Below, piece by piece: positions 368 to 29,412 of a stretch of DNA of 64,000 nucleotides. Position 1 is the stretch's first letter. Each line of letters starts with the position of its first letter. Where the stretch lies: assembly GCA_964016885.1 (NCBI GenBank), contig OZ024741.1:106268001-106332000 (forward strand), read 5' to 3'. The notes under the pieces were generated by a model. It saw only the letters and a list, made by a program, of their open reading frames with translations. It did no database searches and was not told the DNA's origin. The stretch is from Eledone cirrhosa. Its lineage: Eukaryota. The translations under genes and the position numbers were made by a program.

Positions 368-522
368 CTGTGTATGCCAGATTTCCATCCCAGTAATCCA
401 GAGCTGAAATCCAGGCCTCAAAATCATGTCCTTTCCATTGAACAAGGTTCTTTAATCCAGTGTTTGTTACTTGCCATAATGAGATGTTACCATCAGATGC
501 AGAGGCTATAATGCATGGCTCA
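368..522 (-). CDS. DPH7: Diphthine methyltransferase (WDR85/DPH7), third coding exon; gene continues off the left edge
   Basis: Acceptor (ttc)9-cag| and donor |gttggc. 155 nt, in phase with the previous exon. Translates (S)EPCIIASASDGNISLWQVTNTGLKNLVQWKGHDFEAWISALDYWDGNLAYTG, matching the DPH7 motif HxFEAWIxAxxYW...YxG. Not in the ORF track. Confidence 0.9.
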
Positions 523-797
523 CTGGAAGAAGAAGAAGAAGAAGAAGAAGAATGTTTTCTTTATTAACCACAAGGGTTTACATAAAGTAGACATTAAGGA
601 CAGTACAGGACAATACAGGACGGTACAAATGGGCATTTCTGCGTGTAAAAAAAACAGAGGATGTAATAAAATAACAAAGAAAAATTCCCCAATAGGGGGG
701 AGACTTCCGAGGGACATTTGTGGAGAAAGCCCATTAAAAGACCACAGTGACCCTGACCACCAGGGCAAGTGCCCTCTCCCAGTTTTCCACCTTTAAT

Positions 798-3700
798 TTA
801 CAGACACATACTCAGAGAAGGCCCATTCATTCGGGCCATACTTGCTTCTCTCACCCATCTTTCAACAAAATGCTGGGAAGAGAGCACTTCCCTCTCTACC
901 CTGATTTTCCTTTTCAAATGAAATTTGAAAAAGTTAATCAGGGTATCACCGAAGAGGTAAGTGCTCGTCTTCAGCTCTTTCAAACGTGTCCACCATACTA
1001 TCTCTTTCGCCATAGCCACCAGACAGATAAAAACTGCCTGCCCTTCCCGGCTAAAAGAAGAGGGCGGGGCAATCCTCACGATGGACTCAGCTGATAGCTG
1101 GATCCGTCCTACACGTGACAGCAGGTGTTCGACATAAACCCACAAGTCAGCAATGCTCGGACACTGGACGAGTGCGTGCAGGACGGTTTCGTCGCCCTGC
1201 ACGCATCTCGGACATGCCCGGCTGACGGCACCTCCGTGCCTGTAGAGTTTATCCCGAACTGCCAAAGCTCCCCGGTAGCACTGCCAGGCCAGGGATTTCT
1301 GGAAGTTGTCCATAGGCCTCGGCCCGAAAGTCCTTCCGAAGAGATTGGCTAGTTGATTTTCGTCGATGCCTAGAGTTTCTCCAAGTACGTCGTCGCTCTT
1401 CCCCTCCACTAATCCCCTATAGAACGCCAAGGTTTCCACCGATCACATTGCCCGATTGGTCGAGGGCTGTGAGCGCCTGATGACATTCCAGTCTCCAAGC
1501 GCTCCCTCTCGGTCTTCGCTTGACCCAGGACTGCAGCTCCGTCAAGGAGACGAGCTGGGGAAAAACGCATCTAGCAAACGGCGACCACACCTGATCACCG
1601 TCGAGGAAGAGGTGGAGATGTCGTAGCCTGAGCGCGTGTCTGCGCATCATCAGCCACGGCATGCCCAGCCCTCCACGTAGCGGGTGTTGACAGCAGATGG
1701 ACCGCCTGACCATCGGAGCGCGTCCCTTCCACAAGAAGCGAAAGAGCAAACGCTCCAGCGCAGTCAGGCGGGGCTTAGGACAAGGTACGACGGTCAGGCG
1801 GTAGTAGATGACGGACGCGATGTACGCGTTAGCCACCTCCGCTCGACCTTTCAGGGATAGCTTCCTCTCGGCCCATTTCTGGGTGAGAGAAGCTACCCTG
1901 CTTGTCACCTCGTCCCAGTTTTTGTCCGTCTGGAGGTCTGGACCGAACCAGACCCCTAGCAATTTAACCGGTCCGTCCGTCCAGCGCCCGACGACGCTGT
2001 TGGACGGCATGGACCTGCCTCTCCAGGTGCCGAGCTGCAGTCCCACTGACTTTTCCTGGTTGATCATTGCTCCTGTCACCGCTTCGTATTCTCTTAGTGT
2101 AGTGCCGATCGCCTCGATGTGTTTGGCATTCGACACCACTACGGTGACATCGTCCGCATATGCTGACACGGATCTTCCGCATCCTAGTTCGCGCGGGACC
2201 CCCCTCAACGTCTCCAGTTTGTGCAGTAATGGCTCGAGAGTCAATACGTACAATAGGGACGAGAGGGGACATCCTTGGCGGACCGAGCGCATGATGTTGA
2301 ACGGTTCCGAAAGGTGACCGTTCACTCTCACTACAGAGCAGATGTCGCTGTGCATGGCAGCGATCCAGCCTCTGAAGACGGGCCCAAAGCCAGCCGCCCT
2401 CAGGATTGCCGCTAGGTAACGATGGTCGACCCTATCGAAGGCTTTCGACTGATCTAAATTGATCAAAGACCCACCCATGCCAGGTTCCCTAGCTACCCTC
2501 TCTATGATGTATCGCATGAGGTGGAGGTTGTCGTGGATGGATCTGTTGGGAATGGCGCATGTCTGTGCCTCTCCCACCAGACCACCAACGACAAGCGCCA
2601 ACCTCTTTGCTAGCACCTTGGCCAAAATCTTGAACTCTGTGTTTAGCAGAGTTATGGGCCTAAAATTATCTATGTTATCCCCCTTGTTCGGATCCTTTCT
2701 CAGCAGCGCCACCGCTCCTCGGCTCACAGAGCTGGGAATTCTCCCGTTCTGTTGCCAGTTGCAGTAGACGTCCGCCAAGAGGCCTCCGAACAAGTCTGGC
2801 ATTTGTACGTAAAGTTCATAGGGCAGACCATCTAAACCAGGCGATTTACCCCTTGTGCAGCCAGTCATTGCCTCCCGTACTTCAGCGGTTGTTATCGGCT
2901 TTTCGCAACACTCCACCTCAGTGGCCGAAAGCCGCGGCAGTTCGTCGAGGTAGACACTAAAGTCCATCCCTCGATCCGGCCCGCCACTGCCCCCGAACAG
3001 TTGAGCGAAGTGTCGCTGAAAAGCTTCACACATTTGCCCGGGATCGAGTAGCATGCGCCCGTCGTGGTCCACCAAAGACCAGATCGTGGCTTTATTGCCA
3101 CGACGCGCCTCCGCCACTCGGGCCCATTGAACGGCTTTCGTCCCCTCGTGTCTGAGAGCACGCACCCTAGCTCTGACAACACAGCCTTCGTGCTTTGCAT
3201 TGAAGAATTGGTCAAGGGCCAATTTCGCCGCAAGTACGTCGGTCGCGATGCCTTTGCTAAGCGCCTCGTCTAATTTTCTAACTAATTCTCCCTCTGCTCT
3301 ATTTTTCTCTATTGCTAAAGCCTTACTAAACCTAATGGACTCTATTCTAATTGCTCTTTTCAGAGCAGACCACCACTTGTTGTTGACGATGGCCCCCGTC
3401 AACGCCCGCTTAACTAGTTCGCTAATCCGGTCTCTGTAGGCCTTGCGCGCTGGTAAGGACGCGTTTAGCTTCCAGTAGCCAGGTCCTCGTCTATGAAGCC
3501 TATCTAAGTCAAGCACACAGATCACGAATTTGTGGTCCGTGTAGCTGACTATCTTGAATTGTGGACAGCCTATGCTAGACCTATCTATTTCCCTACAAAA
3601 TACTCTATCTAGATATGATCTGGATGACCCTATACGATTTGTCCAAGTCCACATTGGTACATTTGGGAAATCCATTCGGTACCTGTCAGACAGTTCAAAA

Positions 3701-4212
3701 CACCTGAGCAGGTTGGCGAGACTCTTGCACCCTCCTTCCCTATCCACTAATCCCACACAATCCCAGCGTGCATCTAAGATCCCGTTCCAGTCGCCCACTA
3801 ACACTAGAGAGCGGGACGTTCCAAGAAAGGTCTCCAGACGCCGGAAGAAATCAGGCCGCCCTGCTCCTGTCGGGGCATAGACGGCCACTAACCTGAAAGC
3901 TTGCCCTTCTCCGCTGGTCACGTCCAGCACCACCAACTTACCTTCTGGGTCCAGGAAGATGGCCCGTATGGCACGATCCAAACCTCTCCGAAAAAGAACA
4001 GCAACTCCTCCCCCCGATCCCGGATGGCTGGGAGATGCGTACACATCGTAGCTGCCGAAGATCGGTGCGAAGGCCCGTGCTTCGTAGATTCTGGTCTCGC
4101 TGATGGCCACTACATCTATGTTTAGTGACCTGAGGTCGTTGAGCAGGTGGCCTTGCTTCCATGACGACCCCAAGCCACGCGCATTTATGCTGCCTATTCT
4201 GAATGAGGTCAT
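798..4212 (-). CDS. Tx1 ORF2: AP endonuclease + reverse transcriptase + zf-RVT, one frameshift near 1430
   Basis: SINARGL, ISET, GDWN, YLDR, YTDH (APE); KSPGLDG, FRPITLL, LDQSKAFD, RQGCPLS, YADD (RT); CPRC...ETVLHALVQC in the ORF at 798-1439. Confidence 0.92.
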
Positions 4213-4246
4213 GTTGAAAAGGAGTGGAAAAGATGGGAAAGACCAC

Positions 4247-6257
4247 TTACCTTACTTCTCGTAGGGGAAGGACGGTTTTTCCATCCTTTTCACTGCTTGT
4301 GGCCTCCTCAGGAAGGATGTCCTTATAAATCCTCCTGGAGAGTGCTTGTCGGAAGTCTCCGATGTCTTTGGGGAATTTTTGTTTTAGTGTCATGTACGTT
4401 TTCTGTGTGATGCGAGTGATTTGTATGTGTGGAGGTGGTGTGAATTTTTGGGTTGTTGTGTAGTCTTTTTCTGTGATGCTGGTGTTGTGTTGGATGTAGT
4501 GTAATAATTGCTTGTTGTTCAAATTTAATGCTGTGTAGTGTGTATCGTTTTGGTTGTTTTGTTTTGTTGCGTTTGTTGTGGGTTTGTTTCTGTTTCGCAT
4601 TTTGGTGACTTTTGTGTAGGTGATGGTGGTGTTGGGGTTAATGATGGTGATGGTGTTGGTGTTTGGGGTGATGGGATTGGTGATGCTGGTGTGGATGGTG
4701 GCATATCTGTCCTAACTTTTTTGTTTCTTAATTTATTTGTTTCCCTCTGTATTTTGTTTTTGGAGGGGGAAGGAAGAGAATTTTTTCTTTTTTGGTTTCT
4801 TTTTTTTTTCCTGATACCGTTTCCCACTCCTCGTCATCACAATCTGTCTCCAGTTGTGATAGGCCGGGGAGTGAAAAATCCTCCACAGGCGTTAGTTTTG
4901 GTTGTGGCGTGGTGGATGGTGTAGGCGCTGGTGCTAGTTCTGAAGCGTTGGGTGGTGGTGGTGTTGGTTTTGCTGGTGGTGGTGGCGTTGGTTTTGCTAC
5001 TGTTGCTGAGGTTGTTGCTGTTATAGTTGCTTCTGTTGTTGCTGCTACAGTTGTTGCTGCCATCTCTGCTACTGGTGGTGTTGATGGTTGAGTCACTGGG
5101 GTGGGTAGGAGAGGTGGCCTCAACCTTTTAGCCTGAGGGCAGAAAGCCCTTAGGTGGGTTCCTTCACCACAAACGACACACCTAGGCCTTCTGCCCTCGA
5201 CAATTACGGTGAGGTGGCTGCCGTCAGTGAGGTCTATTACCTCTGGGATCTCCTCAATGCTTTTTTGGTCTGCTTGGATCAGGAGCTCCATCCCAGATCC
5301 GGACCAGTTCTCCTGCTTTTCTTTTGCTATTGCTATTATCTTTGTGTTGGCTTCGATGCCGGCAAGGATGGCCGCTATTAGCCAGGGAATTTCGATGGCC
5401 GGTGGAACGTGGGTCACCCTGATCTTTACGAGTCTCTGGCCACAATAGCTTGGGACGAGTGTGAAGTCGTCACTTCTTAATGGAGCCATGGAGTGTTCTC
5501 TAGCCTCCTCTGGTGTTTCAAAGAACACGTCCACGGTTCCATATTTCTGCCCACATCTGATGTGGGTTTTTCTTGCCCACACATGTCCCAAAGCTTTTTG
5601 GATTTGGGACTCGGATGCCCGTTCCACTCGGCGCGATTTTACATTTATTGTTCGATACGACACGGTGCATAGGCGCCGATGCTCCATTTTATTAGGGGGG
5701 GGGGTAAGGCTGACCCTGTACCCATCTTTCTTTACCATTTTTTTGGCATTTTCTAATTCCTCCTGAGTTACCGTAAATGCTTCGCACTGTTTTGCTACTC
5801 TGGCAAAACTCAGGGTGGTTTTTTTAATGTCATTGTTGTTGTTGCTATCGTTATTTTTGTTATTATTAATTTTAGTTTCAGTTGTGGTGGTGGTGACGTC
5901 AGTGGAGTTCGGTTTGGAAGAGTCCATTTTGGTTGAAAATATTTCGACGTCACGAGTTGATTTATTTTTTCCTTTTGTTTCTGTTGTCGCGGTGGTGGTG
6001 GGGGTGGGGGTTGTCGGTGTGGTGGTGGTGGGAGTGGCAGCTTTAACACCTGCAGTCATTGGTAATGGCGAGAAATGAATGTCTGCCTGAGACAAATTTA
6101 AAATATTGCTAGTGCTTAAATTGTTTGTGTTGGCAAACGTAGTATCATTTACAATGGTGGTGTCGGTGTGAGGTGTTATTTTGTGAGGAAGGCTTTCAGC
6201 AGCTTGGTGCAGAGGGGAATTAGCCATTTTTTTTTCAAAATCATTTTTGAAAATCAT
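4247..6257 (-). CDS. Tx1 ORF1 (gag-like, CCHC knuckle), probably frameshifted near its 3' end
   Basis: 509-aa ORF with CVVCGEGTHLRAFC and a Pro/Thr-rich linker. Overlapping ORFs 4525-4827 and 4247-4600 plausibly continue it; the first shift falls in an A-homopolymer near 4800. Confidence 0.75.
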
Positions 6258-6456
6258 AAAAGTTTAAATTTTGGGCACAAGGCCCCAATCTTTTTGGGTG
6301 TCCTTTTCGGAAAACAATGTATGTGTGCTTAACAATAAAAATTTTCCATAAATGGCAATTTTTAACAAATGGAAATAACAAACCTTTGCGGAGCTCACGA
6401 TGATACGATTTACTATGTAGGTCGCCAATAATAATAATAATAATAATAATAATAAT

Positions 6457-8232
6457 CGCACTTATACCATTAAGTAAAATGCTCAATGAAACAAAACATG
6501 GATATAAAGTCTATGACAAAACCATTAATCACTTGTTCTACATGGATGACCTGAAACTATTTGCAAAAAGTGATGAACAATTGCAAGGGCTATTATCCAC
6601 TGTGGAGCAGTTCAGTGATGACATTAAAATGGAGTTTGGACTAGATAAATGCGCCAAAGCAACGTTCACCAGAGGAAAGCTGCTGAAGAGTTCAGACATT
6701 AATCTTGATCGGGGGAATGTGATAAGAGAACTTGATCAAGAAAAAACTTACAAATATCTAGGTGTTTGTGAAGGAGACGGAATCAAGCACTCGACAATGA
6801 GGGAAAGGATAAGGAAAGAATGTTACTGCAGAGTAAGAGCAATCTTAAGAACAGAATTGAATGCAAGGAATAGGATTGATGCCATAAACACGCTTGCCAT
6901 ACCAGTAGTAACCTACAGTTACAATGTCATCAACTGGTCAAGCAGAGAGATCCGTAGGCTCGATACAAAAATTCGAAAATTCTTAACCATGCACAGAATG
7001 CATCACCCTAAGGCAGATACAGATAGAATATATCTCCCTAGGAAAGAAGGAGGTCGTGGGTTAATCCAGTTAGACATTGCGTTGAAAACTGCAACAATTG
7101 GATTATCTACATATCTAAGGGAATCACATGATTGGATGATCAAACTCGTTTTGAAACACGAAAGCATCAAAAGATCATACTCCATTACAAAAGATGCACA
7201 AAGATACAGTAATGGACTACACATTCCAGAAGTCCCATTTACTGCTGAAATGGAAAACACAGAAAAAGCAAAGCAGGTAAAAGTAACTGCAAAGAAAGAA
7301 CTGCTACAGAAACTGGCTAAGAAATGGCAAGAAAAGCCTCTGTATGGAAAATACCCAGAACGAGCTAACAATCCTGATGTTGACAAAACTTTAACCCATC
7401 AGTGGTTGGCATCCTCTGGACTGAAATCGGAGACTGAAGGACTGATTATATCAGCACAAGATCAGTGTCTACCAACAAAAAATTACCAAGCCAACATAAT
7501 AAAAAATGGATGCAGCCCATTATGCCGTGTATGTAAAAAACAGCCAGAGACCATTGACCATATAATTTCAATGTGCAGTCCTATAGCTCCAACCGAATAC
7601 CTAAACAGGTATGACAGAGCTGCACAATACATACATTGGATAATGTGTAAGCATTTTGACCTGCCCCATCAAAAGAATTGGTGGGAGCATCAACCACCTC
7701 CCATACTTGAAAAAGATCACATCTCAATCTTGTGGAACTTTAGCATCCAAACAGACCGAAAAATAGATGCAAATAGACCTGATATAATATTGAAGGACTT
7801 TAAAAAGAGGGTATGCCTGCTAATTGATATGTCCGTTCCAATAGACAAGAATGTATCTATAAAAGCATTTGAAAAATTGAGCAAGTATAAGGACCTGGAG
7901 ATAGAAATTGGAAAAATGTGGAAATTGAGAACTAAAACAATACCAGTGGTTGTAGGCGCTCTGGGAATGATACCTAAGGGGTCTAATGATTACTTATCGC
8001 AAATCCCAGGAAACCCGCGTATAGGAGAAATACAAAAGATAGTACTAATGGGAACTGCCCATATACAAAGGAAGATTCTGTCAATATAAGTGCATCACAA
8101 GTCTAAACACTAAAGATGCATGTGTGAGTATGTATGTTCTTTCTTGAACATGGCGGACCTTGTTGTCTCTTGGGGTCACTGGTTGTGACTTGGTGATAAC
8201 TCGTATGAACATAAAGCAAGATAAATGCAACT

Positions 8233-8233
<1 letters not shown>
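6457..8233 (+). mobile_element. 5'-truncated R4/Dong-clade (restriction-like endonuclease) non-LTR retrotransposon inserted in (TAA)n
   Basis: Starts mid-RT; (AAT)10 at 6427-6456 and (TAA)15 from 8234. Dong elements are known (TAA)n-specific R4-clade elements. Confidence 0.85.
6479..8089 (+). CDS. C-terminal RT + CCHC zinc finger + PD-(D/E)xK endonuclease of the R4/Dong element (uninterrupted but N-truncated)
   Basis: HLFYMDDLK, YKYLG, GGRGL, CRVC...ETIDHIISMC, RPDII...IDMSVP, KLSKYKDL. Confidence 0.88.
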   Translation: MLNETKHGYKVYDKTINHLFYMDDLKLFAKSDEQLQGLLSTVEQFSDDIKMEFGLDKCAKATFTRGKLLKSSDINLDRGNVIRELDQEKTYKYLGVCEGDGIKHSTMRERIRKECYCRVRAILRTELNARNRIDAINTLAIPVVTYSYNVINWSSREIRRLDTKIRKFLTMHRMHHPKADTDRIYLPRKEGGRGLIQLDIALKTATIGLSTYLRESHDWMIKLVLKHESIKRSYSITKDAQRYSNGLHIPEVPFTAEMENTEKAKQVKVTAKKELLQKLAKKWQEKPLYGKYPERANNPDVDKTLTHQWLASSGLKSETEGLIISAQDQCLPTKNYQANIIKNGCSPLCRVCKKQPETIDHIISMCSPIAPTEYLNRYDRAAQYIHWIMCKHFDLPHQKNWWEHQPPPILEKDHISILWNFSIQTDRKIDANRPDIILKDFKKRVCLLIDMSVPIDKNVSIKAFEKLSKYKDLEIEIGKMWKLRTKTIPVVVGALGMIPKGSNDYLSQIPGNPRIGEIQKIVLMGTAHIQRKILSI

Positions 8234-8279
<46 letters not shown>

Positions 8280-8314
8280 TATTATTATTATTATTATTAT
8301 TATGCTCCTGTTAC

Positions 8315-8622
8315 CTTGCCTGTTGTGGAATAGACCAGTCTAATGACAAACCAATAACATTGGAGCCTAGCTCTTCAGAACTGGTCAAAGTTACATGTTT
8401 CTGACTTTCCCCTTCAAGATAATATAGACATATCTGGCCTTCAGCATCAACCAAAGCAAAAGATGAGTGACCATTAAGGTCTGAACGGTACCATTTAATG
8501 TCCAATATTCCGGAATGATCCAATTCTTCATCTATGGAGAGCAGTTCTTGGGAGTCTGTAGTCTTTAGTTGATAAACATACAGTCTACCAACTCTACAGT
8601 TTCCTTTTAATGTATCCTCATC
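8315..8622 (-). CDS. DPH7: DPH7 second coding exon
   Basis: tattttag|GAT ... GCAAG|gtaac, 308 nt. Translates DEDTLKGNCRVGRLYVYQL...SGILDIKW...LSLDWS, matching the DPH7 RxGRL, ILDxKW and LSLDW motifs. Confidence 0.9.
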
Positions 8623-8630
8623 CTAAAATA

Positions 8631-9395
8631 GTAATAATAATAGTGGTTTCTTTATTAGTCACACAGGGCTTATATTAAGAGGACAATAAGGACAGTACAG
8701 AAGGGTACAGTGTGGGTTTTTGTGCGAGAGAAAGGTTTATAAAAAAAGACGAAAAAATAAACATTTCAATAATCAAAACATAACAAATTCCCTTAAGTGG
8801 GGGATATCTCTGAGGGTCAGTCATGGAGAAAGTCCACAAAAATCGATGGTAACCTTGACTGCTAGGGCGAGTGCCTTCTCTCAGATGTATCTCCAATTTA
8901 CAGGCACAGCACATACTCAGAGAAAGACCTTCACTCAGACCAGGCTCGCCTCTTTCACCCACCATTCAACAAACCGGTTGGAAGACAGCATTTCTCTCTC
9001 CTTGATTTTTCTTTTTAGGTGAAACCTGAAAAAGTTAATTAGGGCTTCACCGAAGAATAAAGTATTTGTTTTCAACCCTTTCAAGTGCATCCACCAAGCA
9101 GATAACTACCTGTCCTTCCCCTCTAAAGGAAGACGGTGATGTGATCTTCACAATGGAGTCAGTTGCTAGTTGGATCCCTCTCACACGTGACAGAAGGTGT
9201 TTGACATAAACCCACAGGTCAGCAATGCTCAAACACTCAATGAGTGCATGCAAGACAGTTTCCTCCTCTTGCTCACATCTCAGACAAGCCTGGCTGATGG
9301 CACTTCCATGCTTATAGAGTTTATCTTGAACTGGCAAAGCTCCTCAGTAGCACTGCCAGGCCAGGGATTTCTGGAAATTATTCATAGGCCCTGGA
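8631..9395 (-). mobile_element. 5'-truncated, diverged copy of the same Tx1 family in DPH7 intron 1
   Basis: Aligns by eye to 551-1320 (e.g. gtagcactgccaggccagggatttctggaa). Ends aataaagaaaccactattattatt directly before the exon-2 acceptor. Confidence 0.88.
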
Positions 9396-9700
9396 CTATA
9401 ATAACACTATCATCATCAACAACAATAACAATACCATTATCAACAACACTATCAATATCATCAACAATAACATCAACAACAGCAACATCAACAATAACAG
9501 CACCATCATTGTCAACAATATCCTAAACGTCAACAAAAACATCAACAAATCATTTGGAGACGGTTGCTTCTGACAGAACCTGCTGGAGGGAGTGCTTGAG
9601 GACTCTACCCCCACAACCTTCTCAGGAATAAGTGGGTGAAGAAGAAGAAAGAAGAACAACAATATTACCCCCACCATCATTGTTGTCAACAAAAACAAGA
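9396..9700. repeat. Degenerate (CAA/CAT)n low-complexity tract
   Basis: Runs of aac, atc and aat triplets. Confidence 0.7.
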
Positions 9701-9721
9701 AAACTAAAGAGAATTCTTTAC

Positions 9722-9859
9722 CTGAGGTACTAATTGTTGTAATTCTTCCACAAGTTGATAATTACCAACAAGTAAAACTGAAGAATCCTTAGTAATTGGA
9801 CACCATTCTACTGAATCAGCATAGAATTTGGTTTTAAGAGTCTGAAGTGTTGTAATCAT
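9722..9859 (-). CDS. DPH7: DPH7 first coding exon
   Basis: ATG at 9859, donor CAG|gtaaag after 9722, 138 nt (phase 0). Translates MITTLQTLKTKFYADSVEWCP...LLVGNYQL, with the ADSVEWCP motif. An acceptor (ctatttcag) ending at 9895 implies an upstream 5'UTR exon. Confidence 0.9.
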
Positions 9860-16549: not shown

Positions 16550-17710
16550 AGTACAGACGGCTTATCGTCATTGTTACTGCCGATATGCCACCCAAAAAGT
16601 CCCAACCTGACCGCAAGATCAGATTTTCCAGAAGAAGAAAATGTTACTAGAGCAACAGAGAGACTAAGCTTCACGATTATCATTAACAAAGCTCAAGGTC
16701 AAACCCTAAAAGTAGTTGGCCTTCATCTGGGAAAACCATGCTTTTCCCATGGTCAATTGTATGTAGGATGCTCTAGGGTGAGCTCGCCAAACAATCTCTT
16801 CATCTTTGCTTCCGAGGGCCGAACAAAAATTATTGTATACTCTGAGGTTCTAACAATGTAATTTATGTATTTTCTATTACTTGGAATTTCCATTATGGTT
16901 GTACAAATTATTGTAAAAATTATTGTAAGTTTGTTAAAAAATGTGTTCTCTGTTCAGCCTTTATTGTTTTAACTATTAATTTTCTTTAACGTACTGGCTG
17001 CTGAACTGGGGAATCCTAAAAACTATTCAAACCCAACATCAGAGCACGTTAACACCCCCCCCCCCCAGCTGACTTGAGAGGGCGTGCAGTATCTTTGCTC
17101 TGGAGTAGAGGGGGTAATCCTGAAAAGATAAAATGCCGGTATACCTAGCCGGGCCAGCTCGTACTATATATTTTCAACAGTAATACTGTACTATACTATG
17201 TATTTTCAACAGTAATACTTTACTATACTATATATTTTAAACAGTAATACTGTACTGTACTATATATTTTCAACAGTAATAACATACTATACTATATATT
17301 TTCAACAGTAATACTATACTATATATTTTCAACAGTAATACTATACTATATGTTTTCAAGAGTCATACTATACTATATATTTTCAACAGTAATATTATAC
17401 TATATGTTTTCAAGAGTCATACTATACTATATATTTTCAACAGTAATACTATACTATATGTTTTCAAGAGTCATACTATACTATATATTTTCAACAGTAA
17501 TACTATACTATATATTTTCAACAGTAATACTATACTATATATTTTCAACAGTAATACTATACTATATGTTTTCAAGAGTCATACTATACTATATATTTTC
17601 AACAGTAATACTATACTACACAGACGGCTTATCGTCTGTGTATCCAAGAGAAGCTAGGTACGTGAGCTATATATATGGATGCCGTCTATGGTAGCCGGGC
17701 GCCAGCTAGT
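16550..17710 (+). mobile_element. Non-autonomous Helitron remnant(s) with a PIF1-helicase C-terminal fragment
   Basis: INKAQGQTL..VGLHL..PCFSHGQLYVGCSRV...TKIIVYSEVL at about 16665-16860. GC-rich subterminal motif followed by CTAG-T at about 17706-17710, with a similar motif at about 17147-17162. Confidence 0.8.
17163..17618. repeat. 27-bp minisatellite (tactatatattttcaacagtaatacta, variant tgttttcaagagtcat)
   Basis: About 16 units; explains the periodic ORF 17350-17694. Confidence 0.92.
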
Positions 17711-28325: not shown

Positions 28326-28667
28326 TCATGTCCGAGCACTGCGTTCACACTCCATCAGACATTCTCGCACCAGTATGCGGGCATGAACGATGCCTCGCTT
28401 CAGTCGTTCAGCGGAGGATTTGCTGCCAGAGTACGTCGGACGTATATCTTTGCCCATGTCCTCGATGACCGCCAGAAGCTGGGTGTATTTTGTCTGAGGG
28501 TGTTGTGACATTTGTGGTAGCTGTGGACCACGGTTCCCTACAGCAGGTGGTGGTGTGCCATGGTTACCATGTATGTCCAACTCTGAGCGTGGTGTACCAG
28601 GATTGCTCATCACTGGCGTAACCGGTGAACTGGACGCTGTTCCTTCTATGATCACATCATCGTCCAT
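28326..28667 (-). CDS. CDK2AP1: Cyclin-dependent kinase 2-associated protein 1/2 (DOC-1; NuRD subunit) homolog, 113 aa from this ATG
   Basis: [50 protein letters not shown] matches the CDK2AP domain. Acceptor ctcatttcag| ends at 28677, and ATG follows 9 nt into the exon. Confidence 0.93.
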
Positions 28668-28844: not shown

Positions 28845-29412
28845 CAATAACAGATATTGGTACCATAGCAACTGATATTAGTACAACAGCAGCAGATATT
28901 ATTACAAAAGCAACAACAACAGCTATAACAACAGCATATATTGGTACAAAGACAACAACATATTGGTCCAACAACAACAACAGATGTTGGTACAATAGCA
29001 ACAGCAGATGTTGGTACAATAGCAACAGCATATATTGGTACAACAACAACAGCAGATATTGGTACAATAGCAACAGCAGATGTTGGTACAATAGCAACAG
29101 CAGATGTTGGTACAATAGCAACAGCATATATTGGTACAACAACAACAGCAGATATTGGTACAATAGCAACAGCAGATGTTGGTACAATAGCAACAGCATA
29201 TATTGGTACAATAACAACAGCAGATGTTGGTACAATAGCAACAGCAGATGTTGGTACAATAACAACAGCAGATATTAGTACAATAGCAACAGCAGACATT
29301 GGTACAAAAACAACAACAAATATAACAACATATATTGGTACAACAACAGACATTGGTACAACATATACTGATACAACAATCTATATTAGTACAACAACAT
29401 ATATTGATACAA
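28845..29412. repeat. 24-bp minisatellite (cagatgttggtacaatagcaacag) in the CDK2AP1 intron
   Basis: About 22 units, decaying at both ends; generates repetitive ORFs in several frames. Confidence 0.93.

Follow-up and report, generated by a model that had tools for sequence, protein, structure and literature searches.

Why would two copies of one retrotransposon family end just before the acceptors of two consecutive introns of the same gene? The question arises in a 64,000-nucleotide (nt) stretch of the 3.0-Gb genome of Eledone cirrhosa (contig OZ024741.1, 106268001-106332000; hereafter the window, in whose own numbering coordinates are given), where introns 1 and 2 of DPH7 each contain a sense-oriented copy of a Tx1-like retrotransposon without long terminal repeats (non-LTR). 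The initial annotation proposed that this family may home in on repeat tracts beside acceptors and bring along a branch point of its own, placed across its polyadenylation signal, a niche adapted to splice sites. Our analysis points elsewhere. The family targets (ATT)n microsatellites and gives no indication of a preference for splice sites, and the branch point of intron 2 was probably acquired by incidental co-option rather than by adaptation.

DPH7 and its two insertions

DPH7 was identified as the host gene of both insertions, on the minus strand, by the peptide of exon 2 and by homologues in tblastn searches. For that peptide, the match to diphthine methyltransferase of Octopus sinensis stands at 84% and that to the Argonauta protein at 72%; a PDB search with exon 2 returned nothing useful. 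The O. sinensis and Argonauta DPH7 sequences located exon 1 (its coding portion, starting at the ATG, 9722..9859), exon 2 (8315..8622) and exon 3 (368..522, also with a weak WD40 match), all on the minus strand, and four further DPH7 exons within the adjoining 20 kb. The junction phases read off the sequence (0, 2 and 1) are compatible. Exon 2 is also outlined by a 1,161-nt contig from run X4 (type unrecorded, from a sample other than that of X1 and X3), which spans 8315-8621 and runs on past that interval at both ends; these edges fit splicing of this exon and are indirect evidence for it. A look for RNA records over exon 2 listed none. Contigs of X1 and X3 read through from exon 2 into intron 1, to 8673. 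The donor of intron 3 is a weak GTTGGC (366-367).

Intron 2 measures 7,792 nt, of which 142 nt are left after subtraction of the elements. In gene order, the donor is directly followed by an (AAT)n/(ATT)n tract (8234..8303), an antisense element (6457..8233, plus strand), (ATT)10 (6427..6456, minus strand), copy A (554..6426, minus strand) and A(TTC)9CAG (523..553, minus strand). This last stretch comprises the final target ATT, a host CTT tract and the AG acceptor. Copy A, delimited by its domains and by the heads of tandem copies, is full length and sense to DPH7, and it ends 31 nt from exon 3. Its open reading frame (ORF) 1 (approximately 4731-6227) has a CCHC knuckle of the form C-x2-C-x4-H-x4-C and no Pfam match, and ORF2 (approximately 798-4209), whose frame is interrupted near 1430, contains an apurinic endonuclease-like domain (APE, PF03372), a reverse transcriptase (RT, PF00078) and zf-RVT (PF13966). 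Copy A is young, with a median of 97% to 59 relatives. The remaining four DPH7 introns gave no match to it.

The antisense element, which the initial annotation left unmentioned, is 5'-truncated (about 1.8 kb) and carries RT and zf-RVT domains in a long open frame, with (TAA)n on both sides. Its zinc knuckle and its RYD and PD..D motifs we take to mark a restriction-like endonuclease (RLE) type. Together with the RT and the TAA target, these motifs suggest a Dong/R4-like element.

Intron 1 is shorter, at 1,099 nt, or 355 nt without its element. Its 5' part (9391..9721, minus strand) holds the donor, some 120 nt belonging to a different repeat, which is also present at two other genomic loci (L002 and L070), and a degenerate RTT tract, (GTT/ATT/GAT)n, beside copy B. 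Recognized by sequence comparison, copy B (8647..9390, minus strand) is 5'-truncated and sense to DPH7, and it is followed by a short degenerate (ATT)n target tract closing in TTTTAG, the acceptor (8623..8646, minus strand). Its identity to copy A is 80% by alignment column and 71% by blastn. Because its nearest genomic relatives are only 77-85% identical, copy B belongs to an older subfamily. The sequence and the homologues thus uphold the initial description of two same-family sense copies, one full length, the other truncated and diverged, before consecutive acceptors; the distance of about 10-30 nt is corrected to 31 nt for copy A and about 24 nt from exon 2 for copy B.

The APE, RT and zinc region combined with a CCHC-bearing ORF1 of copy A fits a Tx1 architecture, in keeping with the label given initially. 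APE, RT and zf-RVT also occur together in L1-type elements and alone are not diagnostic of Tx1, and the Tx1 clade has a gag-like ORF1 with a CCHC knuckle. Protein searches with copy A returned no named Tx1 reference, the best named match being a Ciona Pol-like protein at 26%, and atlas searches gave generic names and no clade.

(ATT)n microsatellites as the target

The exact 3' end of the young copies occurs 2,848 times in the genome. We sampled 60 young copies, namely the best 30 of one genome search and the first 30 exact-end matches. At least three ATT units directly follow 54 of them, the other six flanks begin with ATT, and none of the 60 has an A tail. By comparison, Tx1 elements are counted as target specific when one sequence type occurs in more than 20% of flanks (PMC4494074, seen in part). 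At the other end, (ATT)3 lies at 11 of 30 alignment 5' boundaries, several of which are internal alignment breaks, versus 31 of 9,418 random windows. Since truncated copies have ATT on both sides, the repeat is the target and not a tail alone, which bears out the microsatellite targeting suggested initially. Many insertions lie next to other repeats: 59 of 90 sampled ends continue into another repeat, often the tail of an RLE element.

The (TTC)n tract before exon 3 had been read as the tail or target repeat of copy A. TTC-tailed ends number 34 versus 7,846 ATT-tailed ones. Among 20 TTC-tailed copies fetched, the 5' junction was resolved in nine, all nine with (ATT)n upstream; the other 11 lead upstream into either a diverged portion or different sequence. 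TTC is thus ruled out as target or tail of the family, and the (TTC)n at DPH7 belongs to the host and adjoins an ATT tract. The ATT tract of intron 1 is a target repeat. Empty (ATT)3(CTT)4 junctions are scarce in the genome (57 versus 1,921 in the opposite order), and 34 element ends lie there; cutting may be favored at the ATT/CTT boundary.

The sense strand of the element always reads ATT, so its orientation is set by the tract, and this fixed polarity accounts for the sense orientation at both DPH7 acceptors. The TAA-flanked RLE element of intron 2, being antisense, matches the same rule. A sister Tx1-like family with a near-identical 3' end and about 70% nucleotide identity to copy A enters (TATC)n (L092, L098, L102 and L304). 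Elsewhere, head-to-tail tandem copies are spaced by (ATT)n (L033, L045, L054 and L057). A further subfamily shares the ORF2 of copy A but departs from it upstream of roughly element position 2133 (L406, L410, L413, L414, L416, L417, L419 and L425), which suggests an exchanged ORF1 region.

Branch points and acceptors

As initially described, the nearest YTRAY motif lies inside the element in both introns and overlaps its AATAAA. In intron 2, the 60 nt preceding the acceptor hold a single YTRAY, that in TTAATAAA (560..567, minus strand), with its A at -42; in intron 1, the candidate CTAATAAA (8651..8658, minus strand) has its A at -33. Intron 2 has no adenosine between -30 and -3, which places its branch point at the junction or inside copy A, so that the 3' end of copy A now likely supplies it. 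Intron 1 also offers weaker adenosines within its ATT tract. If CTAATAAA and TTAATAAA are in use, the extra AGs at -38 and -29 would each lie 4 nt beyond the branch A, and an AG that near is skipped in splicing. In the eight cases of this type (YT-type) examined besides DPH7, the adenosine of the element's YTAAT is at -40 to -52.

We then turned to all ends of the family. The common end GTGGYTAATAAAGAAA occurs 23,510 times (nine for the reversed control). An acceptor motif, YYYYNYAGR, follows 5-35 nt later at 127 of them (0.54%), a pattern that neither DPH7 copy itself matches, and a control with AC for AG gave 332. With the tract matched, a motif within 25 nt follows 19 of about 7,846 ATT-tailed ends (0.24%, counted without the leading Y) versus 1,124 of 119,958 (ATT)4 starts (0.94%; Fisher p ~1e-14). 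The proposed targeting of acceptors finds no backing in these counts.

Flanks were read for 100 of the 127 matches, and seven of those listed are exons with outside support: a mitochondrial carrier exon (L156), a Kelch exon (L192), a CUB exon (L149), a CMI2B-like exon (L209), a kinase exon (L210), an oxalate:formate antiporter-like exon (L092) and, upstream, a Shg1-domain exon (L169), the last from a domain scan covering 137 of 279 ORFs. At L181 we presume an extended-synaptotagmin exon, for which searches gave no support. A transporter exon (L259) came from the tract-matched ATT set, outside the 127. Of 27 distinct carrier-gene acceptors selected with a script, the motif recovers 7, and of the six DPH7 acceptors none; scaled to this sensitivity, 34-48 ends (0.15-0.2% of the family) would genuinely adjoin an acceptor, a figure that may be somewhat higher because short or poorly conserved exons escape detection.

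Other search patterns were less useful. A TTWCAG pattern (364 matches) was set aside because the matches listed were mostly RLE-tail junctions; at many loci the tail of an RLE element abuts a Tx1-like 3' end and creates a false TTACAG acceptor. An automatic exon scan of 90 loci (L001-L090) was abandoned as too insensitive, having missed DPH7 exon 3 as a control; L016, L019, L028 and L083, inspected by eye, showed no convincing exon. One locus (L095) was dropped for want of family support, the surrounding stretch holding a gypsy-type pol.

Relatives with a different 3' end provide a natural control for the role of the motif. CC-type relatives, which end in CCAATAAA, have no branch motif at that end; those ending in GTGGCCAATAAAGAAA, in which the otherwise conserved T at the second base upstream of the branch A is missing, number 3,731, and 8 of 12 sampled match the ORF2 of copy A within 1.5 kb. 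The acceptor motif follows 21 of the 3,731 (0.56%), versus 0.54% for the YT-type ends (p=0.81). CC-type ends, too, lie directly before exons: a furin-like exon backed by Pfam at L385 and, at L373, an open frame with a donor that we presume to be GNPNAT1, a label unconfirmed by searches. No YTRAY occurs within 75 nt at either locus. The exon-adjacent rates, 1-2 of 3,731 for the CC-type versus about 9 of 23,510 for the YT-type, do not differ on these small numbers (p 0.65-1.0). CC-type ends persist at acceptors; small as the numbers are, the overlap of YTAAT and AATAAA is thus not a constant of the group, nor does persistence at an acceptor depend on it. An element-borne branch point is likely for intron 2 but finds no support as an adaptation, and nothing in the motif counts genome-wide indicates a niche adapted to splicing.

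We infer the following course of events. The endonuclease would cut one strand of an (ATT)n tract, and reverse transcription would set the 3' end of the element toward the acceptor. Where a T-rich tract precedes the AG on the sense strand of the gene, a Tx1-like element would land sense and a TAA-targeting RLE element antisense. Most such insertions would presumably be lost, and the survivors would retain the host pyrimidine tract and AG. With the old branch adenosines moved kilobases away by the insertion, any suitable adenosine at 30-50 nt would serve, often that of the family's YTAAT, which would have taken over branching, almost certainly in intron 2. Both DPH7 introns were small and consisted largely of target repeat, which is likely why both were hit. 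Similar co-option has probably occurred at tens of other acceptors.

Several observations weigh against incidental co-option by a family indifferent to splice sites. If hits were independent, 0.006-0.017 pairs in consecutive introns would be expected genome-wide, and 0.06-0.15 even if diverged copies tripled the rate; independence is broken, however, because both introns are short and contain target repeat, and the window was also chosen after the fact. The gap between 0.24% and 0.94% stems partly from the longer tracts behind young copies. The estimate of 34-48 acceptor-adjacent ends compares with 18-24 at random, a 1.5- to 2.5-fold excess (P 0.02-0.19) that rests on an assumed, unmeasured 150,000-200,000 coding acceptors. 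A small general ATT sample, from contig C1 only, gave no clear exon in 29 flanks read of the first 30, versus 7-8 per 100 Tx1-like ends, a difference that leans toward the initial proposal. Finally, 30 of 62 matches in a control with ends antisense near donors were examined; at most two were exon-like, and most were degenerate AGGT/AGAT repeats, which makes this control uninformative. A sense/acceptor skew among exon-adjacent ends may exist. A weak excess at acceptors may thus exist.

Such an excess could reflect survivor bias, whereby insertion is passive and YTAAT plus a pyrimidine-rich end makes sense insertions tolerable and so mildly over-represented. Beyond the excess itself and the position of the YTAAT adenosine at -40 to -52, the depletion of such insertions in mammals (PMC3088655) and the finding that in human cells 3' splice-site factors are able to suppress intronic polyadenylation (PMC13322065), both taken from partial texts, lend it some plausibility. 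Against it, the motif-less CC-type ends adjoin exons at a similar rate, and the expectation uses an assumed acceptor count with a sensitivity from 33 acceptors. Sense tails of another kind, presumably SINE-like (short interspersed nuclear elements), also precede two sampled carrier-gene acceptors, within 70 nt (L298 and L307); such closeness of transposable-element ends to acceptors may be widespread in this genome. On balance, survivor bias is an unlikely account.

A stronger version, which we hold to be less likely again, would make the end a splice-compatible cassette used by tens of genes: U2 on the branch A would hide the poly(A) hexamer, and sense insertions would escape purging. Masking of polyadenylation, in view of the human data, is plausible as a general effect that requires no adaptation of the element. 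The splice-site niche proposed initially merits very little credence. It has in its favor the two consecutive introns, a YTRAY over AATAAA in both, and the further real exon-adjacent cases; yet an acceptor motif is missing near over 99% of ends, the majority of ends adjoin other repeats, the rate in the matched control does not fall below that of the element ends, and relatives ending in CCAATAAA attained 3,731 copies without the motif. It is scarcely credible that the allele is compromised, with the sense AATAAA or the element's AAG diverting some DPH7 transcripts to mildly harmful effect, as harmful sense full-length insertions in mammals (PMC3088655, in the part available), the extra AGs and the youth of copy A might suggest, given that the X4 contig breaks at the exon 2 edges within a longer record as if spliced, that copy B survived to about 20% divergence and that the extra AGs are too near the branch A for use.

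Relation to known systems

The closest parallels to the family are Kibi and Koshi, teleost Tx1 elements, and crocodilian Tx1 at (TTCC)n/(TTTC)n, which are APE-type non-LTR elements specific to microsatellites (PMC4494074 and PMC3812793, in the parts consulted). The likeness lies in this combination. Kibi and Koshi target (TC)n or (TTC)n, whereas the E. cirrhosa family enters (ATT)n and its sister (TATC)n; the host is a mollusc, TTC tails are rare and confined to ATT/CTT boundaries, and kinship is suggested by domain architecture. Dong, of the R4 clade, shares the TAA/ATT target according to a list of microsatellite-targeting elements (PMC3812793, partial text). Intron 2 contains a Dong-like element, and the two kinds often adjoin one another in the genome, but the endonuclease motifs of this element are restriction-like and its orientation on the tract is opposite to that of the Tx1-like copies. 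Active L1-Tx1 and Dong-R4 families have been described in Octopus vulgaris (PMC13282606), no targets being named in the portion seen. The literature searched, some of it in partial text, yielded no mollusc Tx1 targeting ATT or TATC and no splice-acceptor niche; Repbase or supplements may record such targets.

In mammals, intronic transposable elements are depleted near acceptors, where sense full-length long interspersed nuclear elements (LINEs) form a harmful class (PMC3088655, available in part). In both situations an element able to affect splicing lies no more than tens of bases from an acceptor; sense LINEs are depleted in mammals, whereas the number estimated for E. cirrhosa equals or slightly exceeds random expectation and splicing of the exon apparently takes place.

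Introners, or intron-generating transposons, are another case of transposon sequence acting as a splicing signal; copies A and B differ in lying within pre-existing introns and contributing neither donor nor AG.

Elsewhere in the window are an open frame with a CDK2AP domain (28329-28667, minus strand), apparently intronless in that part, and two minisatellites, at 17162-17618 (period 27) and 28849-29412 (period 24).

With these observations, the microsatellites targeted by Tx1-like elements come to include (ATT)n and (TATC)n, neither being present in those parts of the literature that were consulted. They also indicate that the polarity of a target alone can fix the orientation of an element at splice sites. 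The genome thereby offers about ten natural cases in which a host exon has a LINE 3' end at branch-point distance, YT- and CC-type ends serving as a built-in control; nine loci form a test set (L156, L192, L149, L209, L210, L092, L169, L259 and L385). Such cases are suited to asking whether recognition of a branch point hides an overlapping poly(A) signal.

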